Below the pieces are notes generated by a model that searched no databases, was not told where the DNA came from, and saw nothing but the letters and a program-made list of their open reading frames with translations. From an uncultured Actinomycetes bacterium (lineage in GTDB: Bacteria; Actinomycetota; UBA4738; HRBIN12), in assembly GCA_963704885.1 (NCBI GenBank), contig CAVPIB010000004.1:768001-832000 (forward strand): DNA of 64,000 nucleotides. Reading direction: 5' to 3'. Every line of letters begins with the position of its first letter. Position 1 is the first letter of the stretch. Position numbers and translations under genes: made by a program. Shown in pieces: positions 24,993-50,789 of the stretch.

Positions 24993-25002
24993 AGCTCGCG
25001 CT

Positions 25003-25320: not shown

Positions 25321-25362
25321 GCTGCGATCACCCCAGATCCCGCTGGGGATGCCCGTCGCCAC

Positions 25363-25535
25363 CATGCTCGCGCCCTCTGCGAGAAGCTGCTCTCCTTGGC
25401 CAGCCCGCTCGGCCTGCACGCCGAGGAGCTCGATCCTGTGAGCGGCCGTCATCTCGGCAACTTCCCGCAGGCGTTCACGCACCTCGCCCTTATCAACGCC
25501 CTGATGCATGTGATCCACGCGGAGTCCGAGCAGGA
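25363..25535 (+). pseudogene. C-terminal fragment of a GH15 glycoside hydrolase (trehalase/glucoamylase-like)
   Basis: ARALCEKLLSLASPLGLHAEELDPVSGRHLGNFPQAFTHLALINA is the conserved GH15 C-terminal motif; no upstream part is present. Confidence 0.75.
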
Positions 25536-25563
25536 GAGGACCGCAGCGTTTCCCGGCGAGGCG

Positions 25564-25905: not shown

Positions 25906-25917
25906 CTGGAGATCGCC

Positions 25918-28767
25918 TCAGACGCTGAGCAGGTCAGGGTCGCCGCCGACCGCCTCGACCTGACCGTCGCCCTCAGAGGCCCTCAGCACCTGAGGGGCAG
26001 CCGAACCCCGTCGCGATTCCAGCTCGTGGTACACCTCGGTGGCGTAGTCCACGCACAGAACGACCAGGTCGCCGGGGCGCGAGCGGTTCAAGGCCATGCG
26101 CGCCGCCTCCATCTCGTCCAGGACGATCTCGGCGTTCCCGACTCGGGCCGTTCCCGTCTCCTGAGCCTCGCGCACGCCTTCCAGGATCAGCTCGGCGGTC
26201 TGCCCCGTCGGCCGCCCACGGCTCTTGCGGTCCTCCCGGATGATCAACTCATCGAAGTACTTAGCGGCGACCCGTCCGAGCTCGCGCATATCTTCGTCGC
26301 GCCTGTCACCCGCCGTGGCGACCACAGCGACCCGCAGGTTGGCGGTCCACGAGGCCTCTCCCGGCTGACCGCCCACCGGTGCGTCCGACGTCATCCGATC
26401 CACGAAGTCCCCCACCATCTCCAATCCAGCGGCGTTGTGGGCGTAGTCGATCAACACCTTGACCCCATCCAGGTCGAACAGGTTCAACCGACCGGGCGCC
26501 TGATAGACGGAGGTGGTGAACGACCGCAGACCTTGCCGGATGTCATGAAGGTGCGCACCGGCTGCATGCGCGGCCGCCGCTGCGGCCATGGCGTTCTGCA
26601 CCATCATCCGTGCCTTGCCCTCGAACGTGGCCGGCAGCGTGTGCACCCACGCGATCGGCATGGTGCGACGCCCCTCGCGTATCACCATCATCTCGCCGCG
26701 CGGGCCGTGCTCCAGCACGACCGCCTTGCGACCACGCCGGATCCAACGTTCGACCAGATCGTGCTTCTCCTTCATGGTGAACAGGATCACGTTCCCGCTG
26801 CAGTGGCGGCGCATCTCGAGCACCAGCGGGTCGTCCGCATTGAGCACCGCGTATCCGTTGCGTGGCACGGCTTCCACCACTACTTGCTTGACCGCAGCCA
26901 GCTGCTCCAGCGTGTCGATCTCCTTCAGACCCAGATGGTCGCCAGTCACGTTCAGGACCACGCCGACGTCGTTGCGTTCGTAACCCAGGCCCTCTCGGAG
27001 GATCCCACCGCGCGCGATCTCGAAGATGGCCATGTCCACGCGGGGGTTCTGCAACACCATGAGCGCCGACTTGGGACCCGATGCGTCGACGCGTTTGACC
27101 AGTCGCTCGTCGATGAAGATGCCGTCGGTCGAGGTGATGCCCACCTGGCGTCCCATCCCCCGGAAGATGTGGGAGATCATGCGCGTGGTGGTGGTCTTCC
27201 CGTTCGAGCCCGTCACCGCCACGATCGGGATCCGGGCCGGGGTGCCAGGCGGGAAGAGCAGATCTACCACGTGTTTCGCCACGTACTGCGGCTCGCCCTC
27301 GGTCGGATTCGTGTGCATGCGGAACCCCGGAGCCGCGTTCACCTCCACGATCGCGCCGCCGGTCTCGCGGACGGGATGTGCGATGTCTGGAGCCAGGAAG
27401 TCGATGCCGGCGACGTCGAGCCCCACCACCCCGGCCGCCTCCTCGGCGATCTCGATGTTGTCCTCGTGGGCGTCCCACGTCCTGTCGATCGAGATGCCTC
27501 CCGTGGACATGTTGCCTGTGGCAGCCAGCAGCACGCGCTCACCCTCGGGCGGCACGTCGTCCAGCCCGTAGCCCTGCTTCTTGACCAGCTCGATAGCCGC
27601 GTCATCGATCTTGATCCTGGTCAGGACCTTCTCGTGACCGAGGCCACGTCTGGGGTCTTGGTTGGTGAGCTCCACCAGCTCGCGGACGGATCGCTTGCCG
27701 TCGCCGATCACGTGCGCCGGGACGCGCTCCGCGATCGCCACAACCCGCCCCCCGATCACGAGGACCCGGTAGTCGTTGCCGGTCACGAAGCCCTCCACGA
27801 CCACCCGGCCGTTCCGCGATTCCTTCACCGCGCGTTTGAACCCGGTGCGGACGCCGCGTTCGGTTCGAAGTTCCAGACCCACCCCGCGCCCATGGTTGCC
27901 GTCGAGCGGCTTGGTGACCACGGGGAACCCGATCCGCTTGGCCGCGGCCACGGCATCGTCTTCGTTGCGTACGACCTCACTGCGCGGAACAGGCAGGCCC
28001 GCCGCGGCCAACAGCTGATTGGTCATCTTCTTGTCGCCCGCGATGTCCACCGCCAGCGCCGACGTGGCCGACGTCATGGTGGCGCGGATGCGTTGCTGAT
28101 ACTTCCCCTGGCCGAGCTGCACCAGAGATTGCTGGTTCAGCCGGATGAACGGGATGTCCCGGCTGGCCGCCTCGTCCAAGATCGCCTGCGTCGAAGGGCC
28201 GAACTGCCGCCTCTCGGCCAGGAGGATCAGGCGCTCGAGCTCCGGCGTGAACTCGAACCCCGGGGCTGGCTTGATCAGCTGGTTCACCAGGCGGACGGCC
28301 AGCTTGCCGGCCTCGACGCCCACCACTTCCTCGGCGTAGCCGTAGATCACGTTGTATCGACCGTGCGCGCCGGCGCTTCGGGTCTTGCCCCTTGAGATCT
28401 GGGCGCCGGACTCGCGTTGCAACTCGAGAGCCACGTGCTCGGCGACGTGTCCGAGCCAGGTACCGTCCTCCAACCGCTCGCGGAAGCCGCCTCGCTTGCC
28501 GAGCGAGCAGGAGTGTTCGCCGACGCCGGGTAGAAGCTCCAGGAGCCTGCCGTTGAAGCCGGGGATCGTGTTGGACGGCCACTCCTCGAGCGAGCCCAGA
28601 TCCACCAGCATCCGGATGCACGGCTCGTAGGACCAGTAGTTCGGACCTCGGAACACCTGCGCCTGCAAGATCTTCAGGTCGGGGCGGAGCCGGGCCTGCT
28701 TCTGGGAGGCGGGCTCGCGCTTCTCCCGCTGCCGGTCGGCGCGGGTCTTGGCCGCCCCCGCGGTCAC
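25918..28767 (-). CDS. cphA: Cyanophycin synthetase (CphA1-type)
   Basis: N domain EHSCS..HVAEH; GPSTQAI; ATP-grasp KPLDGNHGRGV and EVNAAPGFRMH; Mur domain VTGSNGKTTT, EIARGGILREGL and DYAHN. Confidence 0.95.
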   Translation of the reverse strand: MTAGAAKTRADRQREKREPASQKQARLRPDLKILQAQVFRGPNYWSYEPCIRMLVDLGSLEEWPSNTIPGFNGRLLELLPGVGEHSCSLGKRGGFRERLEDGTWLGHVAEHVALELQRESGAQISRGKTRSAGAHGRYNVIYGYAEEVVGVEAGKLAVRLVNQLIKPAPGFEFTPELERLILLAERRQFGPSTQAILDEAASRDIPFIRLNQQSLVQLGQGKYQQRIRATMTSATSALAVDIAGDKKMTNQLLAAAGLPVPRSEVVRNEDDAVAAAKRIGFPVVTKPLDGNHGRGVGLELRTERGVRTGFKRAVKESRNGRVVVEGFVTGNDYRVLVIGGRVVAIAERVPAHVIGDGKRSVRELVELTNQDPRRGLGHEKVLTRIKIDDAAIELVKKQGYGLDDVPPEGERVLLAATGNMSTGGISIDRTWDAHEDNIEIAEEAAGVVGLDVAGIDFLAPDIAHPVRETGGAIVEVNAAPGFRMHTNPTEGEPQYVAKHVVDLLFPPGTPARIPIVAVTGSNGKTTTTRMISHIFRGMGRQVGITSTDGIFIDERLVKRVDASGPKSALMVLQNPRVDMAIFEIARGGILREGLGYERNDVGVVLNVTGDHLGLKEIDTLEQLAAVKQVVVEAVPRNGYAVLNADDPLVLEMRRHCSGNVILFTMKEKHDLVERWIRRGRKAVVLEHGPRGEMMVIREGRRTMPIAWVHTLPATFEGKARMMVQNAMAAAAAAHAAGAHLHDIRQGLRSFTTSVYQAPGRLNLFDLDGVKVLIDYAHNAAGLEMVGDFVDRMTSDAPVGGQPGEASWTANLRVAVVATAGDRRDEDMRELGRVAAKYFDELIIREDRKSRGRPTGQTAELILEGVREAQETGTARVGNAEIVLDEMEAARMALNRSRPGDLVVLCVDYATEVYHELESRRGSAAPQVLRASEGDGQVEAVGGDPDLLSV

Positions 28768-29642
28768 TCCGAGGCCTCCCGCTCGGCTTCGAGCGCCCCC
28801 TCGCCGGCCATGAGCCGGCGCGACCGCAGATCGAACCAGTAGCCGGAAGGGAGCGTGTGCAAGACCGCGCCCGACACCATCAGCGGGCGGTACCCCTTGC
28901 CGCGGTACGAGTCGGTCTTCACGTGCGATCCATCCACGATCGTCACGGCTCCACGGCCGATCACCTGGATCGTCTGGTCGGAATGCACTATCGCGCAGGT
29001 GTCCTCGTCGAGCCCTACTCCCAGGAGGGACGGCGACCCCGCCACGATCGCGAGGAGCCGGCCGATCCGGCCTCGTTGCTCGAAGTGCTGATCGATCACC
29101 ACGCCGTGAAGGATCCCCAAGCCGGCGGAGAGCTGCGCCATCCGGTTCTTGGGGGTGGAACCGGTCCGGCCGAAGGCGACCATATGTGAGGCCATGGCAC
29201 TCGCGCCAGCCGACGTACCGGCCAGCACAGCACCACGGTCGTGGGCCAAGAAGAGGGCGTCTCCCAAGCGCGTCCCGGCCACCACCGAGGCCAGACGCGA
29301 CTGGTTGCCTCCGGTGAGGAACACGCCCGTGGCGGTCTGCACGGTCGCCACGAGCGCCGGATCGTCGGCCTCCTCGCGGTCATCGGGCCGAAGGCCCGTC
29401 ACCGTGCTGATCCCGAGCCCTCCGAAGAGCTCGCGGTAGAGATCGGTGGCGATGTCTCCCAGCGACGAGGCGGTGGAGATCACCACGACGTGCCCCTCGG
29501 GCCCGCCGGCGAACTTCGCGAACCGAGCCAGGATGGCCTTGTCGCGGAACTTGTCCTCGGCGCCCCCTATCACCATGACCGGACCGGCCGTGCCGAGGCC
29601 GGCCACGGACGATAGGGGACCCTTCTCCTTCGCGCGCGCCAC
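28764..29642 (-). CDS. cphB: Cyanophycinase
   Basis: IGGAEDK, TGGNQSRL, GTSAGA (catalytic Ser), IDQHFEQRGRIGRL and GLDEDT; 4-bp overlap with cphA. Confidence 0.93.
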   Translation of the reverse strand: MARAKEKGPLSSVAGLGTAGPVMVIGGAEDKFRDKAILARFAKFAGGPEGHVVVISTASSLGDIATDLYRELFGGLGISTVTGLRPDDREEADDPALVATVQTATGVFLTGGNQSRLASVVAGTRLGDALFLAHDRGAVLAGTSAGASAMASHMVAFGRTGSTPKNRMAQLSAGLGILHGVVIDQHFEQRGRIGRLLAIVAGSPSLLGVGLDEDTCAIVHSDQTIQVIGRGAVTIVDGSHVKTDSYRGKGYRPLMVSGAVLHTLPSGYWFDLRSRRLMAGEGALEAEREASE

Positions 29643-31011: not shown

Positions 31012-31998
31012 ATGTCCGAGCGACCTAACGTCCTGGTCACCCGCCCCATCATGGAGGGCCCGACCGAGGTGCTTCAGCAACGATGCGACGTCACGATCCA
31101 CCGCAACGAGTTCGGTATCCCGCGCGAGGAGCTGCTCGAGGTCGTTCGCGACCGCGACGCCATCATCACCATGCTCACCGAGCGCGTCGACGCCGAGCTG
31201 CTGGCTGCGGCCGGCCCACAGCTGAAGGTCGTGGCGAACCACGCCGTGGGGTTCGACAACATCGACGTGCCCGCATGCACAAAGGCCGGCGTCCTGGCCA
31301 CGAACACGCCCGACGTCCTCACCGAGACCACGGCCGACACCGCGTTCGCGCTACTGATGGCCGCGGCGCGGCGAGTCGGTGAGGGAGAACGCCTGCTGCG
31401 AGCGCGGAGGCCGTGGATCTGGGGACCGCTGATGATGCTCGGACAAGACGTCCACCACAAGACGATCGGGATCGTGGGGTTCGGACGGATCGGGCAGGCC
31501 GTCGCTCGGCGCGCGAAGGGCTTCGGCATGCGCGTTATCTACGCGGACGCCCTCCAGCTCCCGCCCGAGGTCGAGGCCGAGACCGGGGCGGAGCGGCGTG
31601 AGCTGGACGATCTTCTGGCCCAGGCCGACTTCGTCTCGATCCACACGAACCTCACGCCTGAGACGCGCCACCTCTTCGACGCGGCGGCGTTCGCGCGGAT
31701 GAAGCCGACCGCCGTCCTCGTGAACACCTCACGCGGCCCGGTGGTCGATGAGTCGGCGCTGGCCGACGCGCTCGCGTCCGGCGAGATCTTCGCCGCCGGG
31801 CTCGACGTCTTCGAACGCGAACCTCAGGTGGAGGAGCGCCTCCTGGAACTCGAGAACGTGGTGATGATCCCGCACCTGGGGAGCGCCACCGTCGACACCC
31901 GCGATGCGATGGGCATGCTGGCGGTCGAGAACGTGTTCGCCGCGCTCGACGGAGCGCGTCCACCGACGTTGTTGAACCCGGACGCGTTCGCGGGATGA
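31012..31998 (+). CDS. D-glycerate dehydrogenase / hydroxypyruvate-glyoxylate reductase
   Basis: AVGFDNIDV, TNTPDVLTETTAD, GFGRIG, VNTSRGPVVDE, GLDVFEREP and PHLGSAT; RBS GGAGGAG. Confidence 0.9.
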   Translation: MSERPNVLVTRPIMEGPTEVLQQRCDVTIHRNEFGIPREELLEVVRDRDAIITMLTERVDAELLAAAGPQLKVVANHAVGFDNIDVPACTKAGVLATNTPDVLTETTADTAFALLMAAARRVGEGERLLRARRPWIWGPLMMLGQDVHHKTIGIVGFGRIGQAVARRAKGFGMRVIYADALQLPPEVEAETGAERRELDDLLAQADFVSIHTNLTPETRHLFDAAAFARMKPTAVLVNTSRGPVVDESALADALASGEIFAAGLDVFEREPQVEERLLELENVVMIPHLGSATVDTRDAMGMLAVENVFAALDGARPPTLLNPDAFAG

Positions 31999-32014
31999 CC
32001 CCGGTGTCCGATCG
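31909..32014 (+). repeat. Copy 1 of a diverged direct repeat of about 105 bp (reductase 3' end plus ppc-like start)
   Basis: atgggcatg...aacccggacgcgttcgcgggatgaccccggtg matches 34995-35101. Confidence 0.85.
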
Positions 32015-32140
32015 CGACGCCGGCCCGTGTTGGCGACCGCTCTCCGCGATCAGCTCGACGTGGATCCGATGATCGTCACGCCGGCTGCCTCGCCATCGAC
32101 GCCTCGTCAACGCGCGCCGGCCGTACGAGTCTGAACCAGA

Positions 32141-33562
32141 CTAGAAGGGGTTCGTTGCCGGTTCGGTTCCCGGCGGCCAGCCCGGATAGTCCTCCGGATA
32201 GTCGAACGCGTCACCGTAGGTCTTCGCTTTCTGGGACGCGATCTCGGGCGCGCGAGGCTTCGCGGAGAAGTCGAACACGTGCTCGAAGTTGTGCGTGTTC
32301 GCGATCCGGGGCGTGAGGTAGCTCAAGCCCCAGTTGTCCGCGATGAACCGCAGGGGGGTCGAGAACTCGCCGACCTCGTCGTCGATCAAGCCTCGCCGCG
32401 CATAGGGGGAGATCGTGAGCAACGGCACCCGGAACCCGAGGCTGACCTCGTTGATCACCGGCGGCATGACGCTGTCGTAGAACCCTCCCCACTCGTCCCA
32501 GGTGATGAAGATCGCGGTGTGCTCCCACATGTCGCTCTTCATCACCGCGTTCACAACGTCCGTCAACCAGTTGTGCGCGAACGACGAGCTCGCCGGTGGA
32601 TGATCGGAGAGCGCGAACTGGGGCGTGACCCAGGTGACGGCCGGTAGCGCGTTCGTCTCGATATCGTCGATCAGCCGATCGACCGAGTTCGCCGCGTGCT
32701 TTCGCCACAGTTCAGTGTGGAAGACGCCGTCGACCGCGTTGAACGCGTTCCAGAAGTAGCCCACCTGGCCGGGGGCCGCCGAGTAGTAGCGCCAGTCCAC
32801 GCCGATCTCGGTGAGCTGTTCGCCCACCGTCTTGAACTGGAAGCACGTGTCGTGCTTCGTGAGGTTCCCTTGGCCGTCCTTGACCATCACGAAGACGTCG
32901 TCACCGAGCGCATCGCACCCCCAGCTCTTGAACTTCTTCGCGCCGTCGACGCGCGCCTCGATGTTCTCTGGGTTGTCGATCACCCCGCCGGACTGCCCGG
33001 CGATGAAGAAGAAGTGGTTCGGATAGGAGGGTCCGAGCGCGGAGGCGAAGAAGTTGTCGGACAGGGCGTATTCGCGCGCCCAGGACCAGTAGTTCGGCAG
33101 CTGCTCCTCCTGGAACTGCGAGTAGGACCACGGGTCGCCGTACGCCCCACCGGCGAACCCGTCCAGCTTGCCGTCGTTCAGGCAGTTCAGCGCGGCCGCG
33201 TAGTCGTGCGGGAGGTCACCCGGGAGCCAGTCGAGGCACCGGATCAGCGGCGTCTCCTGCCCCCACTTCACGCCGACCCTTGCTCCGTTCACGCCGGGGA
33301 AGCGGCCGAAGAGGTTGTCGAAGCTCCGGTTCTCCATCATCACGTAGAGCACGCGTTTGATCGGCCACCGGGTGTCGATCGCCGGGGTCGCGTCGCTCAC
33401 GGCGTGGATCACCTTTCCGCCGGTGCACGAAAAGAGCACGCCACCCGCCACGGCCATGGCGGAACCCTGCAGGAACTTGCGGCGGCTGAGGGCCAGCGGG
33501 TGCGCGTCGCCGCGTTCTTCGTCGTTGGGGTGAACCCGCTCGGGCATGCCCATCAGTTCCAC
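32141..33562 (-). CDS. Tat-exported phosphoesterase / phospholipase C family protein
   Basis: SRRKFLQ twin-arginine signal; MMENRSFDNLFG, DNFF..GPSYPNH, TWDEWGGFYD and GFRVP. Confidence 0.88.
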   Translation of the reverse strand: MELMGMPERVHPNDEERGDAHPLALSRRKFLQGSAMAVAGGVLFSCTGGKVIHAVSDATPAIDTRWPIKRVLYVMMENRSFDNLFGRFPGVNGARVGVKWGQETPLIRCLDWLPGDLPHDYAAALNCLNDGKLDGFAGGAYGDPWSYSQFQEEQLPNYWSWAREYALSDNFFASALGPSYPNHFFFIAGQSGGVIDNPENIEARVDGAKKFKSWGCDALGDDVFVMVKDGQGNLTKHDTCFQFKTVGEQLTEIGVDWRYYSAAPGQVGYFWNAFNAVDGVFHTELWRKHAANSVDRLIDDIETNALPAVTWVTPQFALSDHPPASSSFAHNWLTDVVNAVMKSDMWEHTAIFITWDEWGGFYDSVMPPVINEVSLGFRVPLLTISPYARRGLIDDEVGEFSTPLRFIADNWGLSYLTPRIANTHNFEHVFDFSAKPRAPEIASQKAKTYGDAFDYPEDYPGWPPGTEPATNPF

Positions 33563-33611
33563 CTAGGTTCGGAGTTACCGGTGACCTCGCGCGGTGTCGC
33601 ACCCCCTAGGG

Positions 33612-34742
33612 TCATACGATGGCATCCTCACGCGGGTCGTACGCACAAGCGGGGTCCTCCCCCAACGGATCGCCGGTCGCGGCGAACGCTCGGGCACGCG
33701 ATCCGCCGCACACGTCGGCGAACTCACACGCCCCGCACCGGCCGCTGAACTCCGCGGCCCGGATCGAGCGAAGCAGCGGATGGTCCCGATAGAGGTCGAC
33801 GATGCTGTCCGTTCGCACGTTTCCGAGCCGGTACGGCAGGAAGCCCGCCGGGTAGACATCGCCGTCGTGCGACACGAACAGGATGCCCTTGCCGTCCCTC
33901 GTGCCGACGCTTTGGGCTCGGGAGTCTCCCGGCTCCCCGAGATCTTGCCGCAGGCGCACAGCCAGTCGCCGATAGAGCGCTCCGAGGCCGGCCGCGAAGA
34001 CCGGGTCGGCTGTCGGCTCCAGGTCGCGCCGCTCCGCCACGACGCGTCGGAAGAACGGCCCCTCCACCGTGCGGACGATGAAGCCGTAGCGTGAGGCGTC
34101 ATAGAGGAAGTGGGCGACGTCCTCGTTCTCCCCAGGCGTGAGGTCCTCGAGCTCGGATCCCCGGCCCACCCGGATCAAGAAGAAGACCTCCCAGATGTGG
34201 GCTCCCCAACGGGCAACGAGGGAGGCGATGTCGGCCAGCTGTTCGACGTTGCGCCGCAACACGGTGGTGTTGATCTGAACGGAGATGCCTTCATCGACCA
34301 GCAGCCGCACAGCCGCCTCCGTCTCCCCGAGATGCCCAGCCACTCCACGAACGCCTTCATGCGTTACCGCGTCGGCTCCGTCGAGGCTGATCGATACGGT
34401 CTTGGCACCGACCTCTCGCATCCGCCGTGCCACGTCGCGCGTGAGCAGCGGTGTGACGCTCGGGGCGAAGCCGATCGGCATCCCGTACGCGCGGGCATGG
34501 CGCGCCAGATCGAACAGGTCGCTCCGCATGAACGGGTCACCGCCGGTGAAGACGATCACCGGGGAGCGCGGAGTGAACCCTCGCAGGTCGTCGATCAGCT
34601 TCAGTCCCTGCTCGGGGGTCAACTCACCGGGCTGCGGTTGGGCGATCGCCTCGGCCCGGCAGTGCCGGCATGCCAGGCCGCACGCCTTGGTCGTCTCCCA
34701 GAACAGCAGGATCGGCGCCTGCTCGAAGTTCACCGATGACAC
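33612..34742 (-). CDS. Radical SAM/SPASM protein (TIGR04053/NirJ-AhbD-like)
   Basis: WETTKACGLACRHCRA (CX3CX2C), FTGGDP, SLDGA and C-terminal CGACEFADVCGGSRARA..DPAC. Confidence 0.85.
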   Translation of the reverse strand: MSSVNFEQAPILLFWETTKACGLACRHCRAEAIAQPQPGELTPEQGLKLIDDLRGFTPRSPVIVFTGGDPFMRSDLFDLARHARAYGMPIGFAPSVTPLLTRDVARRMREVGAKTVSISLDGADAVTHEGVRGVAGHLGETEAAVRLLVDEGISVQINTTVLRRNVEQLADIASLVARWGAHIWEVFFLIRVGRGSELEDLTPGENEDVAHFLYDASRYGFIVRTVEGPFFRRVVAERRDLEPTADPVFAAGLGALYRRLAVRLRQDLGEPGDSRAQSVGTRDGKGILFVSHDGDVYPAGFLPYRLGNVRTDSIVDLYRDHPLLRSIRAAEFSGRCGACEFADVCGGSRARAFAATGDPLGEDPACAYDPREDAIV

Positions 34743-34994
34743 GAGCCGATCCTTCCGCGAGGGCGGCGGAGCGTGGAGGAGCGATGTGCCGCGCCACGAT
34801 CCAACGACGTTCGTCATCCTCTCGCTTCAGGGAACTCGCTTCACGGCCGTAGGTCCCGTATCCGTCGGGACCACCGTCGTTGTTGGCCGTGATGCCGGGG
34901 CCACGATCACCTAGGTCGCGGACGATTCCCCTTGCGGACCACGGTCGGTTCGAAGACTATCCGCGGTGCCGGCACCTGTCCCATAATCGATCCC

Positions 34995-35084
34995 ATGGGC
35001 ATGCTCGCCGTGCAGAACGTATTCGCCACGCTCGACGTTGTGCGTCCACCCACCTTGCTCAACCCGGACGCGTTCGCGGGATGA
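34995..35084 (+). repeat. Copy 2 of the direct repeat; an intact 29-aa mini-ORF overlapping the ppc start (ATGA)
   Basis: MGMLAVQNVFATLDVVRPPTLLNPDAFAG* versus reductase C-terminus MGMLAVENVFAALDGARPPTLLNPDAFAG*. Confidence 0.85.
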
Positions 35085-37479
35085 CCCCGGTGGTCCGATC
35101 GACCGGGCCCCGCTCGCTACAGCTGCGGCAGAACGTCCGCCTCTTGACCACCATGCTCGGAGACGCGATCGCCGAGAGCGGGGGCGAGGAGTTGCTCGCC
35201 CGGGTCGAGGCCCTGCGGACGGCGGCGATCGCCCTGCGCGGACGAGCCACAGAGGCACGTCGCGAACGCGTGGCGGCCCTGGTCGCGGAGCTCGACACAC
35301 CACAGGCGGAGGACGTGATCCGGGCCTTCACCTGCTACTTCCAGCTGGTGAACCTGGCCGAGGAGCGGCAACGGGTGCGCACCCTGCGGACGCGGAGCCG
35401 CTCGGGCAAGCCCGTCAAGGACTCGATCGCCGCGCTCGAGGCGGATCCGTCCGCGTACGACGGCCTTCTGATCATGCCCGTGCTCACCGCGCACCCGACC
35501 GAGGCGAAGCGACGTGCCGTGGTCGAGCACCTCTGGCGGATCGGCGCCCTCCTGGAACAGGTGGAGGATCTGCCGATGGGCGCCTCCGATGAGCAGGAGG
35601 TTCGGCGACGCATGCGCGAGGAGATCGCAGGGCTCTGGCGCACGGATCCCATCCGCCGCCACCGCCCCGAGCTGCTCGACGAGGTGCGCGCCGTGCTGGC
35701 CCTCTTCGACCAGACGATCTTCACCGCGCTGCCCTCTGTCTACCGCGAGATGGACCGTAAGCTCGACGCCGAAGGCTGCGGCCGGCGCCCGCCCGCGTTC
35801 CGACCCTTCCTACGGTGGGGCACGTGGGTCGGGGGCGACCGGGATGGGAACCCGCGCGTGACCGCCGAGGTCACTCGCGCAGCCATGGCGATCCAGTCGG
35901 ATCACGTGCTCCGCGGATTGGAGGCCGCGTCGCGGCGGATCGCCAGGACGCTCGCCGTCTCGGACCGGGACGTACCGCCGAGTGTGGCGCTTCGCCGAGC
36001 GCTGGAGCGCGATGCCAAGGCGTTGCCGGCCGAGGCGCGCGAGCTGGGGCGGATCCACCCCGACGCCCCACACCGGCGGAAGCTCGGCCTGGCCGCCCAT
36101 CGCCTTGCCGCCACGCGCACCGGCTCTCACGGCGGCTACGAGGGTCCCGGGACCTTCCTTCGAGATCTCGACGTATTGCAGCACTCGCTCGACACGGCCG
36201 GGGCGCCGCGCCTGGCGTGGGGCGAGCTTCAGCATCTGCGTTGGCAGGTGGAGACGTTCGGTTTCCACCTCGCGGCCATGGAGGTCCGGCAGCATTCGAG
36301 CGTGCTCGAGGCCGCTCGCGCTGAGCTGTCGGCGGCGGAGCCGGGAGGCGCCGCCAAGCCCTCTGCCCGGACGCGTGAGGTGCTCGCCACGTTCCGAGCG
36401 ATCGCCGACATCCAGGCCTGCGGCGCGCCGGTTGTTGAAGCGCCTCGGCGGGGAGCTCGAGGTGATGGTCGGCTACTCGGACTCTGCCAAGGAGGTCGGG
36501 ATGCTCGCCGCGAACCTCGAGCTGTACGCAGCCCAGCGTGCGATGGCGTCGTGGGCGCGGGAACGAAGCGTCCGTCTGACGATCTTCCACGGGCGCGGCG
36601 GCGCGCTCGGGCGGGGCGGCGGACCGGCGAGCCGTGCGATCGAGGCCGAACCCCCCGGATCGGTCGCCGGGGCGGTTCAAGGTGACGGAGCAGGGCGAGG
36701 TGGCGTTCGCGCGGTACGGGAACGCCGCGCTCGCTCGACGGCACCTGGAGCAGCTCACGAGCGCCGTTGTGCGAGCGAGCGCGCACGACATCGTTCACGA
36801 CCCGGCGGATCGCTTCACGGCCGAGACCGAGGCGATGTCCGAAGCGTCACGGCAGCGGTACGAGGATCTGGTGCACGCCGACGGCTTCATCGAGTTCTTC
36901 CGGCGCGTCACGCCGATCGCGCAGATCGGCACGCTCCCGATCGCCTCCCGCCCGGTCGGCCGCGGGATGAGCGCAACGACGGCGCTCGAAGACCTGCGCG
37001 CGATCCCGTGGGTGTTCGCCTGGGGATAGAGCCGGGTGAACCTGACTGGCTGGTACGGGCTCGGGACCGGGCTGAAAGCGGTGGCGTCTCGCCGGGGAGG
37101 GCTGACGCGTCTGCGGACCGTGGCTCGCGAGTGGCCGTTCTTCGCCACGCTCTTGGAGAACGCCGAGCTGTCGCTCGCCAAGGCGGACCCCGCGATCGCC
37201 GAGCTGTACCTGGCGCGCGGCGACCGGCCGGACCTGTCAGCCGCGATCCGCGAGGAGCTCGAACTGACCACCGACCTGGTCCTATCCGTTTCCGGCCACA
37301 CCCGGCTGCTGGACTCCAAGCCCGACCTTCAGCGCGCGATCGAGTACCGCAACCCCTACGTGGACGCGCTGTCGTTCCTACAAGTGCGGTTCTTGGGAGA
37401 GCCCGACGACCTCAAAGCAGAACGCCTGGTCCAGGCCACGATCAGCGGGGTGGCGGCGGGCCTGCAGAACACCGGGTAA
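35081..37479 (+). CDS. ppc: Phosphoenolpyruvate carboxylase; apparent internal deletion and frameshift near 36420, second frameshift near 36670
   Basis: VLTAHPTE, WVGGDRDGNP, VMVGYSDSAKE, FHGRGGALGRGGGP, VTEQGE, LRAIPWVFAW, RNPYVDALS and AAGLQNTG across three frames; conserved PLFET segment not found. Confidence 0.88.
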
Positions 37480-37673
37480 GGAAGCGGCGATCGACTCCTT
37501 GGGTGTTCCGTACGGTGGGATCGTCATCCCGATCTGTGGAACATCACATGCTGAGATCCCCCCGAGGGCGTCGCAGCCCGACGTCGCAGCCCAAGTGGAA
37601 GGTCGAGCGCGTGAGAACTCACTGGCCTGCCGGTCCCCGTTCGCCCGACTATCGCAGGTCAGGGGCGGTCGCC

Positions 37674-37704
37674 TATACTCGGAGGCTCCCTGAACGGCCA
37701 TTCA
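37674..37704 (+). promoter_or_regulatory. Putative -10 box (TATACT) and downstream near-palindromic operator TGAACGGCCATTCA
   Basis: TATACT at 37674-37679 and inverted repeat at 37691-37704, upstream of the aminotransferase-mcl-mtkAB operon. Confidence 0.45.
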
Positions 37705-37750
37705 AACCATCCGGTCGATACAGGCGTTCTTGAGGAAGAAGGAGTCCGTC

Positions 37751-38890
37751 ATGACCGAGCTCAGGACCACTATCCCGCCGATCCACCCCGGAGACCGGCT
37801 CCTCTGCGGGCCCGGGCCATCGAACGTTCACCCGAAGGTGCTCGAGGCGATGCAGCTGCCGATCAACGGCCACCTCGATCCGGACTTCTGGGATCTGCTT
37901 CTCGACCTGGTCGAGGGCATGAAGGCGCTCTGGCGCCGTCCTGACGGGCTCTCGCTCTGTTTCAGCGCCAGCGGCACATCTGGCATGGAGGCCGGGTTGG
38001 CGAACCTCGTGGAGCCCGGTGACCCGGTGATCGTGATACACGCTGGGTTCTTCGGCGCACGCATCGCGGAGATGGCGCGCCGAGCCGGTGCAGAGCTGAT
38101 CGAGCTCACCGCGCCGCTCGGGCAGATCGTGCCGCTCGACCAGGTGGCCGATGCGCTCGCTAAGCACCCCGACACCAAGCTCGTGGGAGTGGTCCACGCC
38201 GAGACCTCGACCGGTGTGCGCTTCCCGGTGAAGGAGCTGGGAGCGGTGATCGCCTCGAGCGGCGCGGACGACGCGCTCCTGATGGCCGACTGCGTCACGT
38301 CGCTCGGCGGAGAAGAGGTCTCGCCCGTCGAGTGGGGCATCGACTACGCCCACTCATGCTCGCAGAAGTCGCTCGGTTGTCCGCCGGGGCTCGCGCCGTT
38401 CAGCCTTTCGCCCCGCGGCCTGGAGCGGATCCGCCACCGCAAGGCGGCCACGTCGTTCAGCTTCGACATCGATCTTCTGGAGAAGTACTGGATCGAACGA
38501 CCGATCACCTACCACCACACCATGCCGATCCTGCAGTACTACGCGCTGTACGAGGGCATCCGGCTGTCGCTCGAAGAGGGCCTAGAGAGCAGGTGGGCTC
38601 GCCACGAGGACGCCGGCCGCTACTTCCAGAACCAGATGCGCGACCGTGGCTACACGTTCCTGTCGGACCCCGACCATCAGCTGTGGGAGCTGTCGGCTAT
38701 CGACGTGCCCGAAGGCGTGGACGGCAAAGAGGTCCAAACGAAGATCCTGCGCGGGTTCGGGATCGAGGTGGGCGGAGGCCTCGGACCCACGGCTCCTCCC
38801 ATCTGGCGCGTCGGCCTGATGGGAGTGAACGCGAACCGCGAGACGGCCGATCGGGTGATCGACGCGTTCGACGCCGTCCTGCCACGGTAA
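37751..38890 (+). CDS. Class V aminotransferase, alanine/serine-glyoxylate family
   Basis: LLCGPGPSNV, SGTSGMEA, VHAETSTGV, DCVTSLGG, CSQKSL (PLP Lys), YHHT and WRVGLMG. Confidence 0.88.
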   Translation: MTELRTTIPPIHPGDRLLCGPGPSNVHPKVLEAMQLPINGHLDPDFWDLLLDLVEGMKALWRRPDGLSLCFSASGTSGMEAGLANLVEPGDPVIVIHAGFFGARIAEMARRAGAELIELTAPLGQIVPLDQVADALAKHPDTKLVGVVHAETSTGVRFPVKELGAVIASSGADDALLMADCVTSLGGEEVSPVEWGIDYAHSCSQKSLGCPPGLAPFSLSPRGLERIRHRKAATSFSFDIDLLEKYWIERPITYHHTMPILQYYALYEGIRLSLEEGLESRWARHEDAGRYFQNQMRDRGYTFLSDPDHQLWELSAIDVPEGVDGKEVQTKILRGFGIEVGGGLGPTAPPIWRVGLMGVNANRETADRVIDAFDAVLPR

Positions 38891-38895
38891 CCGGC

Positions 38896-39861
38896 ATGGC
38901 GCGCAAGGACCGACCGCACCGCAGCGAGCTCGCCGTTCCCGGCACCAACACCAGGGCCATGGCCAAGGCACCCACGCTCGAGGCCGACCTGGTCTTCCTC
39001 GACCTCGAGGACTCGGTGGCGCCCGACGACAAGGAGCAAGCCCGCGCGAACGTGATCGAGTCGCTGCTTGGACAGGACTGGACGCCCTGCGCCGTCAGCG
39101 TCCGCGTGAACGGCCTGGACACCCACTGGTGCTACCGAGACGTGGTCGACGTGGTAGAGCAGGCCGGTGGGGTGCTGGACACGGTGCTCGTCCCCAAGGT
39201 GGGCTCGGCCTCCGACGTGGAGTTCGTGGCCACGCTGCTGGATCAGATCGAGCAGCGCAACGGCTGGGCCCCAGGAGGGATCGGCATCCACATCCTGATC
39301 GAGACCGCGAAAGGCATGGCCAACGTCGAGGCCATCTCGCGCGCCCGGCCAGATCGCCTGGAGGCCATGGTGTTCGGCGTGGCGGACTACGCGGCGAGCG
39401 TCCGCGCCCGCACCACGAACATAGGCGGCGCCAACCCCGACTACGCCGTGCTCACGGACCCCGACGCCGCCGGCGAACGCCAGCTGCACTGGGGCGACCA
39501 GTGGCACTTCGGCATCTCGCGCATGGTCGCGGCCTGCCGCGCCGAAGGGCTCCGTCCGATCGACGGACCCTTCGGCGACTTCGAGGACGCGGAGGGGTTC
39601 CGCGCGGCGGCGCGACGCGCCGCCGCGCTCGGGTGCGAGGGGAAGTGGGCGATCCACCCCTCGCAGGTGGCGCTCGCGAACGAAGTCTTCACGCCATCGG
39701 AGGCCGAGGTCGAGAAGGCCAGGCGGATCTTGGAGGCCATGGAGCAGGCGGCGAAGGAAGGCAAGGGCGCCGTGGCGCTCGACGGCCGGCTGATCGACGC
39801 CGCGTCGATCCGCATGGCAGAGGCGCTGATCGCGAAGGTCGACCAGATCGACGCTCGATGA
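38896..39861 (+). CDS. mcl: L-malyl-CoA/beta-methylmalyl-CoA lyase
   Basis: RSELAVPG, FLDLEDSVAPDDKEQAR, LIETAKG, FGVADYAAS and HWGDQWH..GLRPIDGPFGDF..GKWAIHPSQ match proteobacterial Mcl motifs as recalled. Confidence 0.85.
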   Translation: MARKDRPHRSELAVPGTNTRAMAKAPTLEADLVFLDLEDSVAPDDKEQARANVIESLLGQDWTPCAVSVRVNGLDTHWCYRDVVDVVEQAGGVLDTVLVPKVGSASDVEFVATLLDQIEQRNGWAPGGIGIHILIETAKGMANVEAISRARPDRLEAMVFGVADYAASVRARTTNIGGANPDYAVLTDPDAAGERQLHWGDQWHFGISRMVAACRAEGLRPIDGPFGDFEDAEGFRAAARRAAALGCEGKWAIHPSQVALANEVFTPSEAEVEKARRILEAMEQAAKEGKGAVALDGRLIDAASIRMAEALIAKVDQIDAR

Positions 39862-41033
39862 ACATCCACGAGTACCAGGCGAAGGAGCTGCTCCGGTCCT
39901 ACCGCATCACCACGCCCCGGGGCGAGGTCGTCTACACCGCGAAGGCCGCCGCCCGGGTCGCCGAGGACCTGGGCGGCAGCCGTTGGGTCGTGAAGTCGCA
40001 GATCCATGCCGGCGGACGCGGCAAGGCCGGAGGCGTTCGCATGGCGACCACGCCGGAGCAGACCGCCGAGATCGCCGACCAGATGCTCGGCTCCACCCTC
40101 GTCACCGATCAGACCGGATCGGAGGGACAGCACGTGAGCCGGCTTCTGGTGGAGCGCGCCTCACGGATCGAGCGGGAGTTCTACCTCTCGCTCGTGGTGG
40201 ACCGGGACTCCCAGCGGGTGGTCGTGATCGCGAGTGCCGAGGGCGGCATGGACATCGAACAGGTGGCCGCGAGCGATCCAGACGCGATCCACACCGAGTA
40301 CATCGACCCCGGCGTGGGGCTGCTCGACTTCCAGTGCCGCAAGATCGCCGACGCGATAGGCCTTGGCAACCGCACAACATCGTTCACTCGGCTGCTGAAG
40401 CGCATCTATCGGCTGTTCCGCGACAAAGACTGCCTGCTGCTCGAGATCAACCCGTTCATCGAGGCCGAGGACGGCGAGCTGGTGGCGCTCGACTGCAAGA
40501 TGAGCTTCGACGACAACGCCCTTCACCGCCAGGGCGACGTGGTGGAGCTTCGGGACTTCGACGAGGAGGACCCTAAGGAGGTCGAGGCATCCGGGCATGG
40601 CCTCAACTACATCGCTCTGGACGGCGCCGTGGGCTGCATCGTGAACGGGGCGGGGCTGGCCATGGCGACGATGGACGCGATCGTCCACCACGGCGGGCGC
40701 CCGGCGAACTTCCTGGACGTGGGAGGCGGAGCCAGCCCCGAGAAGATCGCGAACGCGTTCAGGATCGTGCTGAAGGATCCGAACGTGAAGACGATCCTGG
40801 TGAACATCTTCGCCGGCATCAACCGATGCGACTGGATCGCCCAAGGCGTGGTCCAGGCCACGCGCGACCAGGCCGTCGAGGTGCCGGTGATCGTCCGTCT
40901 GGCGGGAACCAACGTCGACGAGGGCCGCGCGATCTTAGATGCGAGCGGCCTGGCACTGGTCCAGGCCGAAGACCTGGACGATGCCGCGCACAAGGCCGTC
41001 GCCGCCGCTTCCTCGGCGGAGGTGCCGGCGTGA
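39858..41033 (+). CDS. mtkA: Malate--CoA ligase beta subunit (SucC-like)
   Basis: MNIHEYQAKE, VKSQIHAGGRGKAGG and NGAGLAMATMD; NIFAGINRCDWIA is MtkA-like rather than SucC NIFGGI.RCD.IA; ATGA overlap with mcl. Confidence 0.78.
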   Translation: MNIHEYQAKELLRSYRITTPRGEVVYTAKAAARVAEDLGGSRWVVKSQIHAGGRGKAGGVRMATTPEQTAEIADQMLGSTLVTDQTGSEGQHVSRLLVERASRIEREFYLSLVVDRDSQRVVVIASAEGGMDIEQVAASDPDAIHTEYIDPGVGLLDFQCRKIADAIGLGNRTTSFTRLLKRIYRLFRDKDCLLLEINPFIEAEDGELVALDCKMSFDDNALHRQGDVVELRDFDEEDPKEVEASGHGLNYIALDGAVGCIVNGAGLAMATMDAIVHHGGRPANFLDVGGGASPEKIANAFRIVLKDPNVKTILVNIFAGINRCDWIAQGVVQATRDQAVEVPVIVRLAGTNVDEGRAILDASGLALVQAEDLDDAAHKAVAAASSAEVPA

Positions 41034-41929
41034 GCGTCTACGTGGACAAGGACTCACGGGTCATCATCCAGGGGTTCACGGGCCAGCACGCCACGTTCCA
41101 CGCCGAGGAAGCCATGTCCTTCGGGACCAAGGTCGTGGGGGGCGTGACGCCCGGCAAAGGGGGCACCACGCACCTAGGCCTGCCGGTCTTCAACAGCGTG
41201 GCCGAGGCCGTCGACGAGACCGGGGCCGACGTCTCCGGCATCTTCGTTCCGCCGGCCCTGGCCACGGACTCGCTCCTTGAGGCCGCGGAGGCCGGCGTCT
41301 ACATCGCGGTGATCATCGCCGACGGTGTCCCCGTGCAGGACATGGTCAAGACGAAGGGCTACCTGACCGGCCGACAGACCACGATCATCGGGCCGAACTC
41401 CCCCGGCGTCATCACTCCGGGCGAATGCAAGGTGGGCATCATGCCGTCACACATCTACTCGAAGGGCCGCATCGGTGTGGTGTCGCGGTCCGGGACGTTG
41501 AACTACGAGGCCGTGTCCCAGATGACCAAGCTGGGGCTGGGGCAGTCGACATGCGTGGGCATCGGCGGCGACCCCGTCAATGGCACCGACTTCAAGTCGG
41601 TCCTGCACGAGTTCGAGAACGACGACGACACCGATGTGGTCGTGATGATCGGTGAGATCGGCGGGCAGCAGGAGGTGGAGGCGGCGCGCTGGGCCCGTCA
41701 GTACATGTCCAAACCGCTGGTGGTGTTCATCGCAGGGGTCTCGGCGCCACGCGGCCGGCGTATGGGCCACGCTGGCGCCGTGATCAGCGGCGAGAGCGAC
41801 ACGGCTACCGCCAAGCTCGACGCGATCGAGGCTCTCGGACATCACACGGTCCGCAACCCGGCGGACATCGGCGACACGGTCTTCCGCGCGATGAAAGAGG
41901 TAGGCGAACACAGCCACCGAGGCGCCTGA
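41030..41929 (+). CDS. mtkB: Malate--CoA ligase alpha subunit (SucD-like)
   Basis: [39 protein letters not shown] and RRMGHAGA (phospho-His); GTGA overlap with mtkA. Confidence 0.75.
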
Positions 41930-43761: not shown

Positions 43762-45595
43762 TCAGTCCTTCGGCGGACGACCGCGCCTGCCCGCCTTCAC
43801 GCGATCCTGCTGAACCAGCAGGACCTTGCGCAGGCGGACGTGGTTCGGAGTGACCTCCACGCATTCGTCCTCGCGTATGAACTCCAGGGCCTGCTCCAGC
43901 GATAGCTCGCGCTTGGGGATCAGCCGTGTGAACTCCTCCGACGTGGACTGGCGCATGTTCGTGAGCTTCTTCTCCTTCGTGGGGTTCACGTCCATGTCCT
44001 CGCCGCGCGCGTTCTCCCCCACGATCATGCCCTCGTAGACCTCCTCGGTGGGGCCCACGAACATCGAACCGCGTTCCTGGAGCGTCTGGAGCGCGAACCC
44101 GGTGGTCACGCCGGACCGGTCGGCAACGAGCGAGCCGGTCGGACGCGTCCTGAGGTCGCCGTGCCACGGCTCGTACCCCTCGAAGACGTGGTGGAGCTGC
44201 CCCGTCCCCCGCGTCTCGGTCAGGAACTCCGTTCGGAACCCGATCAGACCCCGAGCCGGGACCAGGTGCTCCATGCGGATCCAGCCGGTGCCGTGGTTCA
44301 CCATGTTCTCCAGGCGTCCCCTGCGGAGCGCCAGCATCTGCGATACCACGCCCAGGTACTCCTCGGGCGCGTCGATCGCCACGCGCTCCACCGGCTCGTG
44401 GAGCGCCCCGCTGACCGTGCGCGTCACGACCTGCGGTTTGCCCACGGTCAGCTCGAACCCCTCGCGGCGCATCATCTCGACCAGGACCGCCAGCTGGAGC
44501 TCGCCGCGGCCCTGAACCTCCCAGCGATCAGGCCGGTCGGCCGCCAGCACACGGATGGATACGTTGCCAACGATCTCCTGGTCCAGGCGCCCCTTCACCA
44601 GGCGGGCCGTCATCTTGTCGCCGTCTTGGCCCGACAGCGGCGAGGTGTTGATGCCGATCGTCATGGAGAGGGAGGGCTCATCTACATGCGTGACGGGGAG
44701 CGGCCGCGGGTCGTCCAGGTCTGCGAGCGTCTCGCCGATAGTGATGTCCGCCATACCCGCAACCGCGATGATCTCGCCTGGCCCCGCTTCCTCCGCGTCC
44801 ACTCGATCGAGCGCTTCGGTCACGTAGAGCTCCCCGATCTTGGCCTGCTCGATCGAGCCGTCGGCCCTGCACCAAGCCACGGTCTGCCCGCGGCGGATGG
44901 TTCCGTGCCGCACGCGGCAGAGCGCGAGGCGTCCGAGGTACGGCGACGCGTCCAGGTTGGTCACCAACGCCTGCAGGGGGTGATCGTCGGCGTACTCGGG
45001 CGCGGGGATGTGATCGCGGAGCGCCTGGAACAGCGGCTCCAGGTCCTCGGCCAGATCGTCTGGGTCAGAGCCGCAACGTCCGGCCCTCGCGTTGCAGTAC
45101 AGGATCGGGAACTCGATGTGATGGTCCTCTGCCTCCAGGTCCAGGAACAACTGGTAGACCTCGTCGACCACCTCGGCGATGCGCGCGTCAGGTCGATCGA
45201 CCTTGTTCACCACCAGGATCACCGGCAGATGCGCCTCCAGCGACTTCCGCAGCACGAACCGCGTCTGAGGCAGCGGACCCTCGCTGGCGTCGACCAGGAG
45301 CAGCACACCGTCCACCATGGTCAGGCCCGCGCTCGACCTCACCGCCGAAGTCGGCGTGGCCCGGTGTGTCCACTATGTTGATCTTCAGGTCGCCGTGGCG
45401 AACGGCCGTGTTCTTGGCCAGGATCGTGATGCCCTTCTCACGCTCCAGGTCCATGGAATCCATGACCCGCTCGGCCACGTCCTGGTTCGCTCGGAACGCC
45501 CCAGACTGCCAGAGCATGGCGTCGACCAACGTGGTCTTGCCGTGGTCGACGTGCGCCACGATCGCCACGTTTCGGATGTCGTTGCGGAAGGGCAT
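43762..45595 (-). CDS. typA: Translational GTPase TypA/BipA; single-base frameshift near 45327
   Basis: [57 protein letters not shown] and [10 protein letters not shown]. Confidence 0.95.
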
Positions 45596-45769
45596 GAGCG
45601 CACGGCTTTCCAGTCGAGGAACAGAGAGAGCGGCGCCGAATGGCGACGCAGGGGTCAGTGTACCGACTCCACGGATCGGGGCGGCTGTTCCAATATGGTG
45701 CGTGAGACCGGTAGTCATGAGTGTGGAAGAGTGGTACTCGTCGATGCGGGATAGTGGTACTGTGCTTGG

Positions 45770-50765: not shown

Positions 50766-50789
50766 TCGGCAGCGGTTCCTGCGACGAAC

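Follow-up and report, generated by a model that had tools for sequence, protein, structure and literature searches.

A serine-cycle-type gene cluster with an interrupted ppc gene in an uncultured Gaiellales bacterium: a possible substitute for malate synthase

The window analyzed here is a 64,000-nucleotide stretch of an uncultured actinobacterial genome (G000:C4:768001-832000). Between its positions 31012 and 41929 it carries six plus-strand genes of the serine-cycle type, hpr, ppc, sga, mcl, mtkA and mtkB. The gene content of this genome and of its relatives suggests that in the present genome the module works at the glyoxylate node and not as a closed C1 cycle, and that malyl-CoA lyase (Mcl) and malate thiokinase (malate-CoA ligase, MtkAB) replace malate synthase. 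We give this reading about an even chance (roughly 0.5). An earlier note, made from the letters of the window alone, had named the six genes. Family matches bear out their identities and common orientation, but not an uninterrupted run, as two minus-strand genes split hpr from ppc.

Gene sets for the serine cycle are seen as a hallmark of Proteobacteria, and the actinobacterial methylotrophs known to us use other routes. A full-text search of open-licence PubMed Central and bioRxiv, with supplements outside its scope, found no paper describing serine-cycle-type genes in the Gaiellales or Thermoleophilia. The genome is 3.0 Mb in 20 contigs, has 67% G+C and is 97% complete. In the labels used below, G000 is the present genome, G001 onward are Gaiellales relatives, and L denotes loci; L011 is from G005.

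Results and Discussion

Glyoxylate and C1 genes in the genome and its relatives

Isocitrate lyase (ICL) is encoded with an equivalog-level score (757.9 bits, cut-off 562), and no match to the malate synthase TIM barrel (PF01274) was found in the 97%-complete genome, 16 kb of which lay outside the search. The classical glyoxylate shunt, ICL plus malate synthase, is thus not found in this organism. The same combination recurs in its relatives. Among 41 Gaiellales genomes, an orthologous Mcl (at least 70% identity) occurs in 17. ICL accompanies it in all 17 and a true malate synthase in none; G011, G021 and G026 give weak PF01274 matches, which are to Mcl itself. Three genomes (G018, G030 and G040) have ICL and malate synthase and no Mcl match. 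The earlier note had allowed, besides C1 assimilation by a serine cycle, for a related route between malate and acetyl-CoA plus glyoxylate. This second option fits the genome better than C1 autotrophy, and the route probably runs towards malate.

Genes that were not seen in the window (glyA, a glycerate kinase and the tetrahydrofolate genes ftfL and folD) were all found elsewhere in the genome. There are a glyA, two folD, an ftfL at equivalog level, a glycerate kinase of the GlxK type (TIGR00045, 408 bits) and an ATP-type phosphoenolpyruvate (PEP) carboxykinase (PEPCK-ATP). A C1/tetrahydrofolate island at G000:C4:52172-62647 (locus L128) holds two genes for GcvT-family aminomethyltransferase-like proteins, FtcD (glutamate formimidoyltransferase), ftfL and FdhD, together with a fused NuoE/NuoF-like subunit and the alpha subunit of a molybdopterin, NAD-type formate dehydrogenase, whose in-frame TGA probably encodes selenocysteine. 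The adjacency of formate dehydrogenase and ftfL recurs in G025 and G026. A gene for crotonyl-CoA carboxylase/reductase, ccr, lies at C1:908545-909726 (514 bits against a cut-off of 378.55). With the queries used, no MOFRL-type glycerate kinase, RuBisCO, GTP-type PEP carboxykinase (GTP-PEPCK) or full-length pyruvate carboxylase was found in the genome. No methanol dehydrogenase of the pyrroloquinoline quinone (PQQ) or N,N-dimethyl-4-nitrosoaniline (NDMA) type and no Mch, a marker of the tetrahydromethanopterin (H4MPT) pathway, was found either, in a search that did not extend to methane monooxygenases, methylamine routes or mycothiol-dependent formaldehyde dehydrogenase. Among the routes searched there is therefore no primary C1 oxidation system, only the formate dehydrogenase.

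Judged from these matches, candidates for the serine-cycle parts GlyA, glycerate kinase, Mtk, Mcl, FtfL and FolD are all present, enolase and malate dehydrogenase lying outside the search, and the glyoxylate that such a cycle requires could be regenerated by ICL, ccr also being present. PEP carboxylation to oxaloacetate is missing here, where ppc is broken and PEPCK-ATP is the only enzyme found; G006 and G011 have it.

Two of these genes do not follow the module through the family. The ccr gene occurs in 36 of the 41 genomes, including G014-G017, G019 and G020, which lack any Mcl match, and so does not track Mcl. Likewise ftfL was found in all 15 family mates searched, some of them without Mcl, and so does not track the module. 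Four Mcl-positive genomes (G007, G012, G021 and G023) lack ppc.

The genes of the cluster

The coordinates of the cluster and of the insert within it are collected in Table 1. The hpr product scores 371 bits against the NCBIfam glyoxylate reductase model, under its cut-off of 455, and its best solved relatives are the glyoxylate reductases 6bii, 5aov and 2dbq (310-342 bits). Among solved structures the product of sga, a gene with GAAGGAG upstream of its ATG, comes closest to the alanine-glyoxylate aminotransferase 1vjo (328 bits) and next to entries named alanine-glyoxylate or serine-pyruvate aminotransferase; its identity to the sga of alphaproteobacterial methylotrophs is 29-32%. Compared with proteobacterial serine-cycle enzymes in general, Sga and Hpr show 29-37% identity, and both remain under all NCBIfam equivalog cut-offs. 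A second hpr/sga-like pair on contig C4 consists of serA and another class-V aminotransferase.

The mcl product is predicted to have the HpcH/HpaI-type fold and closely resembles characterized malyl-CoA lyases, scoring 425 bits to 5ugr (Malyl-CoA lyase/beta-methylmalyl-CoA lyase) and 324.5 bits to 4l9y (Malyl-CoA lyase), with citrate lyase beta chains far below at no more than 129 bits. Its counterparts in Methylobacterium and Methylocystis loci share 65-66% identity with it and those in Methylococcaceae loci 72-76%, and the Mcl query has a single match in the present genome.

Table 1. Positions of the cluster genes, of the genes inserted between hpr and ppc, and of the repeats flanking the insert (window coordinates)
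Feature	Position	Strand	Description
hpr	31012-31998	+	GRHPR-type glyoxylate/hydroxypyruvate reductase candidate, 328 aa, intact; Pfam 2-Hacid_dh + 2-Hacid_dh_C
Direct repeat, copy 1	31902-32014	+	hpr 3' end, hpr stop and first bases of ancestral ppc
Insert gene	32141-33562	-	Phosphoesterase family protein with twin-arginine translocation (TAT) signal; Pfam PF04185, TIGR01409
Insert gene	33612-34817	-	Radical SAM/SPASM protein; TIGR04053, 471.9 bits against a cut-off of 395
Direct repeat, copy 2	34988-35101	+	Decayed relic of hpr 3' end directly before ppc
ppc pseudogene (probable)	35081-37479	+	PEPcase matches in three frames
sga	37751-38890	+	AGXT-type (serine/alanine)-glyoxylate aminotransferase candidate, 379 aa; Pfam Aminotran_5 (class V)
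mcl	38896-39861	+	Malyl-CoA lyase by family; Pfam HpcH_HpaI (PF03328)
mtkA	39858-41033	+	Malate-CoA ligase beta subunit candidate, 391 aa; SucC-like, ATP-grasp_2 + Ligase_CoA
mtkB	41030-41929	+	Malate-CoA ligase alpha subunit candidate, 299 aa, GTG start; CoA_binding + Ligase_CoA, SucD-type models

Identity of the CoA ligase

The earlier note would have withdrawn its proposal if the ligase grouped with SucCD, acted as SucCD and were the only copy in the genome. A separate sucCD pair lies at C1:848289-850294 and is 43% and 52% identical to the window pair, which identifies the window ligase, by its sequence, as a paralog distinct from the housekeeping SucCD. Against the model for the malate-CoA ligase beta subunit (NF010647, cut-off 604) the window beta subunit scores 555.2 bits, and against the SucC model NF001913 (cut-off 370) it scores 543.7. 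The corresponding scores of the other beta copy in the genome are 359.8 and 475.

A tree of beta subunits was calculated from both copies of five named or related genomes, both copies of the present genome, and 15 loci picked by hand from 80. With L053 included (32% identity, branch length 7.4), the tree did not separate MtkA from SucC. After removal of L053, the 20 mcl-linked sequences and the six SucC sequences fell on opposite sides of a branch with a Shimodaira-Hasegawa-like approximate likelihood ratio (SH-aLRT) support of only 78. The motif that the earlier note had taken as MtkA-like, NIFAGINRCDW, is indeed encoded in mtkA (NIFAGINRCDWI, 40803-40838). In the form NIFAGINRCDW[IV] it is found in all 20 mcl-linked beta subunits, which come from Alpha-, Beta- and Gammaproteobacteria and from Gaiellales, and in none of the six SucC, all of which read NIFGGI[MVT][RK]CD instead. 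We take this loop to lie at the succinate site of succinyl-CoA synthetase. By overall identity the beta subunit stands about equally near to proteobacterial SucC (52-54%) and to alphaproteobacterial MtkA (54-55%). MtkB is 52% identical to the SucD of its own genome, 68-73% to the mcl-linked alpha subunits of Gamma- and Betaproteobacteria, and 48-55% to those of alphaproteobacterial loci.

Could the ligase be merely a second succinyl-CoA synthetase, with a neighborhood that has no functional meaning? Its score over the SucC cut-off and under that of MtkA, the fact that all solved relatives are succinyl-CoA synthetases, and the similar closeness of the beta subunit to both families would agree with this. 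Such an explanation is nevertheless very improbable: a canonical sucCD is present elsewhere in the genome, the motif separates 20 of 20 sequences from 0 of 6, and the order mcl-mtkA-mtkB recurs in Gaiellales, Gammaproteobacteria and Betaproteobacteria. In the window the three genes are translationally coupled through the overlapping stop and start codons that had been pointed out before (ATGA at 39858-39861 between mcl and mtkA, GTGA at 41030-41033 between mtkA and mtkB). From these comparisons it is probable that the ligase works like MtkAB and formally belongs with it.

Taxonomic setting

The relatives of Mcl are described here from the best 80 loci found. Those at the top of the ranking are metagenome bins of uncultured Actinomycetes, Actinomycetota or Gaiellales (77-92% identity), and they are followed by Methylococcaceae, Nitrotoga and other Gamma- and Betaproteobacteria (69-76%). 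Further loci belong to Solirubrobacterales and Thermoleophilaceae (63-68%) and to alphaproteobacterial methylotrophs (65-66%). Related mcl genes of Gaiellales, Solirubrobacterales and Thermoleophilaceae make up 32 of the 80. By these matches the host lineage is actinobacterial and belongs to the Gaiellales (class Thermoleophilia), in keeping with the actinobacterial origin assumed earlier. Contamination was considered and rejected, as the 1.14-Mb contig shares the gene order peptidyl-prolyl isomerase (PPIase), GDSL, cluster, typA with genus mates.

One 5.6-kb contig, L017 (JBLMXP010000045.1), was binned as Planctomycetaceae; its mcl-mtkA-mtkB is 80-84% identical to the Gaiellales genes and nested in the Gaiellales clade, and the contig is probably mis-binned.

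Conservation of the block in related genomes

Synteny was surveyed at the site between the PPIase/GDSL pair and typA in 12 loci from 11 related genomes, with matches of at least 60% identity. The block is kept at the same chromosomal site in genus mates. The full series hpr-ppc-sga-mcl-mtkA-mtkB is found there in G006, G009, G010 and G011, and the same block in L011. In G007 and G012 the series is hpr-sga-mcl-mtkA-mtkB, with ppc cleanly gone. In G004 and both copies of G001 the reverse is seen: ppc alone stands at the site, and hpr, sga, mcl and mtkAB have been lost together. Shorter series are sga-mcl-mtkAB in G013 and mcl-mtkAB in G021 and G022. Where ppc is retained within the block it is uninterrupted in G006 and G011 and split in G005, G009 and G010. 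The ppc gene and the other five genes were thus lost independently within the genus, and ppc is dispensable for retention of the module.

In comparisons with L011 and L116, the ratio of nonsynonymous to synonymous substitution rates (dN/dS) is 0.06-0.14 over the five intact genes (hpr 0.11-0.14, sga 0.12-0.13, mcl 0.09). These genes are under purifying selection and the module is maintained by selection. Together with the shared site in genus mates, the low ratios indicate that the cluster is more than a chance assembly.

The Mcl tree places several Thermoleophilia clades in an unresolved group with Gamma- and Betaproteobacteria, and so does not give the direction or age of any transfer. A recent transfer of the whole cluster from Proteobacteria was considered as well and is unsupported, close proteobacterial relatives existing for mcl-mtkAB only.

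In G001 the arrangement PPIase-GDSL-ppc-typA occurs twice (C4:30569-33106 and C15:1596-4133) with near-identical match patterns, either through duplication or through redundant contigs in the bin.

The broken ppc gene and the insert before it

The earlier note remarked that ppc looked damaged, and a DNA alignment with three orthologs (L011, L013 and L014) locates three lesions. A conserved stretch is lost through a 194-bp deletion after 36415, an additional base stands near 36667, and at 37027-37029 a CAG has become TAG within a conserved FAWGQSR stretch. As a result PEPcase is matched in three pieces in three frames with one TAG, and about 90 profile positions (461-549) that are covered in the orthologs of genus mates are unmatched. 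A whole-genome search found no PEPcase match beyond these three pieces, so that PEP carboxylase does not exist as one uninterrupted frame in the present genome. The fragments have dN/dS values of 0.10-0.21 against two genus mates, which suggests that the decay is recent.

Among the public sequencing runs searched, none contains at least half of the words of 36000-37300, the top share being 0.20. Contigs assembled from public runs (X1-X4) are all from one study and 90-99% alike. X2 and X3 have C at 37027, and X1, X3 and X4 lack the extra base at 36669. None bridges 36415/36416; there contigs end or diverge exactly (X2 records 11 and 13, X4 record 29), and the parts they leave uncovered are uninformative. 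Their behavior at the three sites suggests that ppc is intact in close relatives and that the lesions are specific to the present strain.

A 2.97-kb insert with two opposite-strand genes parts hpr from ppc. Neither gene was found at this site in the 12 loci of genus and family mates at the 60% identity filter. The insert is flanked by a direct repeat with 98 of 114 identical bases (86%, blastn), the second copy of which matches hpr residues 290-328 at 72% identity (tblastn). The ppc ATG at 35081 overlaps the stop of this hpr relic, and the same overlap is seen in the ancestral arrangement. By cutting ppc off from hpr, the insert gives a reason for the decay of ppc.

The damage might also be an artefact of a long-read metagenome bin, leaving a cluster intact apart from the insert; this would be independent of how the pathway is read. 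The highly conserved typA/bipA gene (43762-45634, minus strand) has one frameshift near 45326 that places its 103 N-terminal residues in another frame, both parts being about 88% identical to the L011 ortholog, and this frameshift is likely an assembly indel error. Genus-mate assemblies G009 and G010 contain many split genes as well, and the contigs of close relatives are free of the ppc lesions. These contigs, at 90-99%, come from relatives and not from the present strain, however, and the lesions are concentrated. Over the block shared with L011 (GDSL, hpr, ppc, sga, mcl, mtkA, mtkB, NAGPA, GyrI-like and typA) ppc has three of them, typA has its single frameshift, and the remaining eight genes are undamaged. 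Neither the 194-bp deletion nor the C>T nonsense change is an error of the homopolymer type, and the 3-kb insert supplies a cause for decay; the artefact is improbable. It is likely that ppc is a real pseudogene that was recently inactivated in the present strain.

Interpretation of the pathway

In the reading we favor, isocitrate lyase would supply glyoxylate, which Mcl would join with acetyl-CoA to form malyl-CoA. MtkAB, working in the ATP-forming direction, would then free malate, so that Mcl and MtkAB together would stand in for the missing malate synthase. In parallel, Sga may convert glyoxylate to glycine and serine to hydroxypyruvate, and Hpr and the GlxK-type glycerate kinase may take hydroxypyruvate on to phosphoglycerate. 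GlyA could pull methylene-tetrahydrofolate into serine, whereby C1 units would be co-assimilated; the methylene-tetrahydrofolate may come from formate through FtfL and FolD.

The principal competitor is a working serine cycle, fed by formate or by units derived from methyl-tetrahydrofolate, in which ICL regenerates glyoxylate and either ppc is in fact intact or a reversible PEPCK-ATP replaces it. The earlier note proposed C1 assimilation by a serine cycle, and part of that proposal stands: the parts are present, including glycerate kinase, ftfL, folD, glyA and formate dehydrogenase, whose absence the note had named as grounds for dropping it. There are candidates for all steps except ppc (glyA, sga, hpr, glycerate kinase, mtkAB, mcl, ICL, ftfL and folD), the NAD-type formate dehydrogenase could provide energy, PEPCK-ATP is available, and ppc belonged to the ancestral operon, with fragments whose low dN/dS marks a recent loss. 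For the present strain the proposal is weaker, since the ppc pseudogene cuts the classical route at PEP carboxylation. Of its three lesions, the 194-bp deletion and the nonsense substitution are atypical of consensus indel errors. Neither a full pyruvate carboxylase nor GTP-PEPCK was found in the genome as another carboxylating enzyme, and the methanol dehydrogenases and Mch searched for were not found. The presence of ftfL in Mcl-less family mates and the independent loss of ppc and of the other five genes likewise speak against this reading. We consider it unlikely for the present strain. Where relatives have kept ppc intact, a complete serine cycle fed by formate is plausible, as the cluster with glycerate kinase, ftfL, folD, glyA and formate dehydrogenase means that relatives with the intact block would encode a nearly complete ICL-type serine cycle. 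It might also be that acetyl-CoA is assimilated by an ethylmalonyl-CoA pathway like that of Rhodobacter, with Mcl serving chiefly as its beta-methylmalyl-CoA/malyl-CoA lyase and MtkAB merely salvaging malyl-CoA. Ccr at equivalog level, three large subunits of the methylmalonyl-CoA mutase family, a thiolase and a propionyl-CoA-carboxylase-like carboxyltransferase are present, and Mcl scores well against 4l9y, presumably the Rhodobacter enzyme of that pathway. Yet Ccr is also common in Mcl-less Gaiellales, ICL makes the route unnecessary, and NCBIfam identified no ethylmalonyl-CoA mutase among the three mutases; the search did not take in mesaconyl-CoA hydratase and methylsuccinyl-CoA dehydrogenase. 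This role for Mcl is a good deal less probable still than a working serine cycle.

Several points weigh against the replacement of malate synthase by Mcl and MtkAB. Six ICL-positive genomes have neither malate synthase nor Mcl (G001, G004, G014, G016, G017 and G019, 78-96% complete), so that in this family ICL can exist without either partner, and the counts of Mcl, ICL, malate synthase, ppc and ccr include the unpublished genomes G008, G029 and G037. The beta subunit does not reach the NF010647 equivalog cut-off, and its membership in MtkAB is therefore not established by curated-threshold standards. If the typA frameshift is an assembly error, the one-nucleotide insertion in ppc might be one too. 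The direction assigned to Mcl and MtkAB derives from gene content, and we know of no organism that uses malate thiokinase in reverse in place of malate synthase, a point for which the literature was not searched. A true serine cycle would be the simplest explanation for the place of ppc in the ancestral operon, overlapping the hpr stop, and the presence of ccr means that Mcl could also serve an ethylmalonyl-CoA route.

A broader and tentative view we regard as possible though doubtful. In it, the Gaiellales or Thermoleophilia would run an ICL-type serine cycle, the first in Actinomycetota, some of whose enzymes (AGXT-type Sga, GRHPR-type Hpr and GlxK-type glycerate kinase) are not orthologous to the usual ones and whose input is formate or methyl groups passed to tetrahydrofolate; the present strain would just have lost the carboxylase and kept the rest as an ATP-conserving malate synthase. 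The island at C4:52-63 kb with ftfL, formate dehydrogenase, GcvT-family genes and FtcD is supporting context for a formate- or methyl-fed cycle.

The Gaiellales, and more widely the Thermoleophilia, are abundant, almost uncultured Actinomycetota of soil and sediment. Should the cycle operate in the relatives whose ppc is intact, formate and other C1 units would have a large group of uncultured soil bacteria among their consumers. A replacement of malate synthase by Mcl and MtkAB would instead amount to a glyoxylate shunt that saves ATP, of which no natural example is known to us. The reciprocal losses within one genus, leaving ppc only or all but ppc, offer a natural experiment to separate the two readings.

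Other features of the window

Just upstream of the cluster lie genes for a cyanophycin synthetase (25918-28767, minus strand), an S51 peptidase, probably a cyanophycinase (28764-29642, minus strand), and a second protein with a Mur ligase domain (21694-23568, plus strand). The region 21694-29642 looks like a nitrogen-storage cluster. An FrhB/FdhB-like F420-related protein (8846-10036) and a luciferase-like monooxygenase (13465-14595) hint at F420-dependent chemistry and have no apparent relation to the cluster. A multi-PAS histidine kinase is encoded at 9726-13026 (plus strand) in two overlapping frames, with a PAS array at 9729-12125 and a further PAS, HisKA and HATPase at 11806-13026; the split is either a frameshift or reflects two genes. 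Four large genes at 48265-58050 (minus strand) encode RTX calcium-binding repeats, in one case together with PD40 beta-propeller repeats. Along this run the AT skew becomes strongly negative (-0.19 to -0.23 at 52-58 kb).

Comparison with known systems

The serine-cycle clusters of alphaproteobacterial methylotrophs (Methylobacterium and Methylocystis; L073, L077, L082, L083 and L086) share with the window the clustering of six enzyme functions and the NIFAGINRCDW motif, with identities of 65-66% for Mcl, 54-55% for MtkA and 48-55% for MtkB. Their order is sga-hpr-...-mtkA-mtkB-ppc-mcl, whereas the window reads hpr-ppc-sga-mcl-mtkA-mtkB. Sga, Hpr and Ppc of the window are only 29-37% identical to the alphaproteobacterial enzymes, which suggests that they belong to other subfamilies (AGXT type, GRHPR type). 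The host of the window is actinobacterial and its ppc is dead; the glycerate kinase of its genome is GlxK-type, and searches there for the MOFRL type, for a PQQ methanol dehydrogenase and for an H4MPT marker gave no match.

A comparable logic, in which glyoxylate is regenerated by ICL, appears in Methyloversatilis universalis FAM5. According to the passages available from PMC5023235, Hpr, Sga, GlyA, MtkA, MtkB, Ppc1 and Mcl have locus tags there that follow one another directly, and expression of Icl on C1 substrates is very high. The same passages describe a malate synthase, a second Ppc and growth on methanol and methylamine, in contrast to the present genome, which has no working Ppc and in which malate synthase and methanol dehydrogenase were not found.

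The proposed formation of malate has a parallel in the "apparent malate synthase" of Rhodobacter sphaeroides and M. extorquens, in which Mcl carries out the condensation and a second enzyme, the thioesterase Mcl2, frees malate. The available part of PMC2948502, citing Erb et al. 2010, gives this term to Mcl plus malyl-CoA thioesterase in M. extorquens on acetate. No second CitE-like paralog (Mcl2) was matched in the present genome, so release of malate would need reversed MtkAB or an unrelated thioesterase. Relative to the systems of that source, the glyoxylate would here come from ICL, instead of or beside the ethylmalonyl-CoA pathway.

The closest systems outside the Thermoleophilia are the mcl-mtkA-mtkB triads of Gamma- and Betaproteobacteria (Methylococcaceae, Methylolobus, Candidatus Nitrotoga and Ectothiorhodospiraceae; L025-L045). 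Unlike in the window, no relative of sga, hpr or ppc was detected in them within 10 kb (E 1e-20, half-length matches). Their three genes stand in the same order as in the window, with identities of 69-76% for Mcl, 62-64% for MtkA and 68-73% for MtkB, and their proteins group with those of the Gaiellales in both trees.

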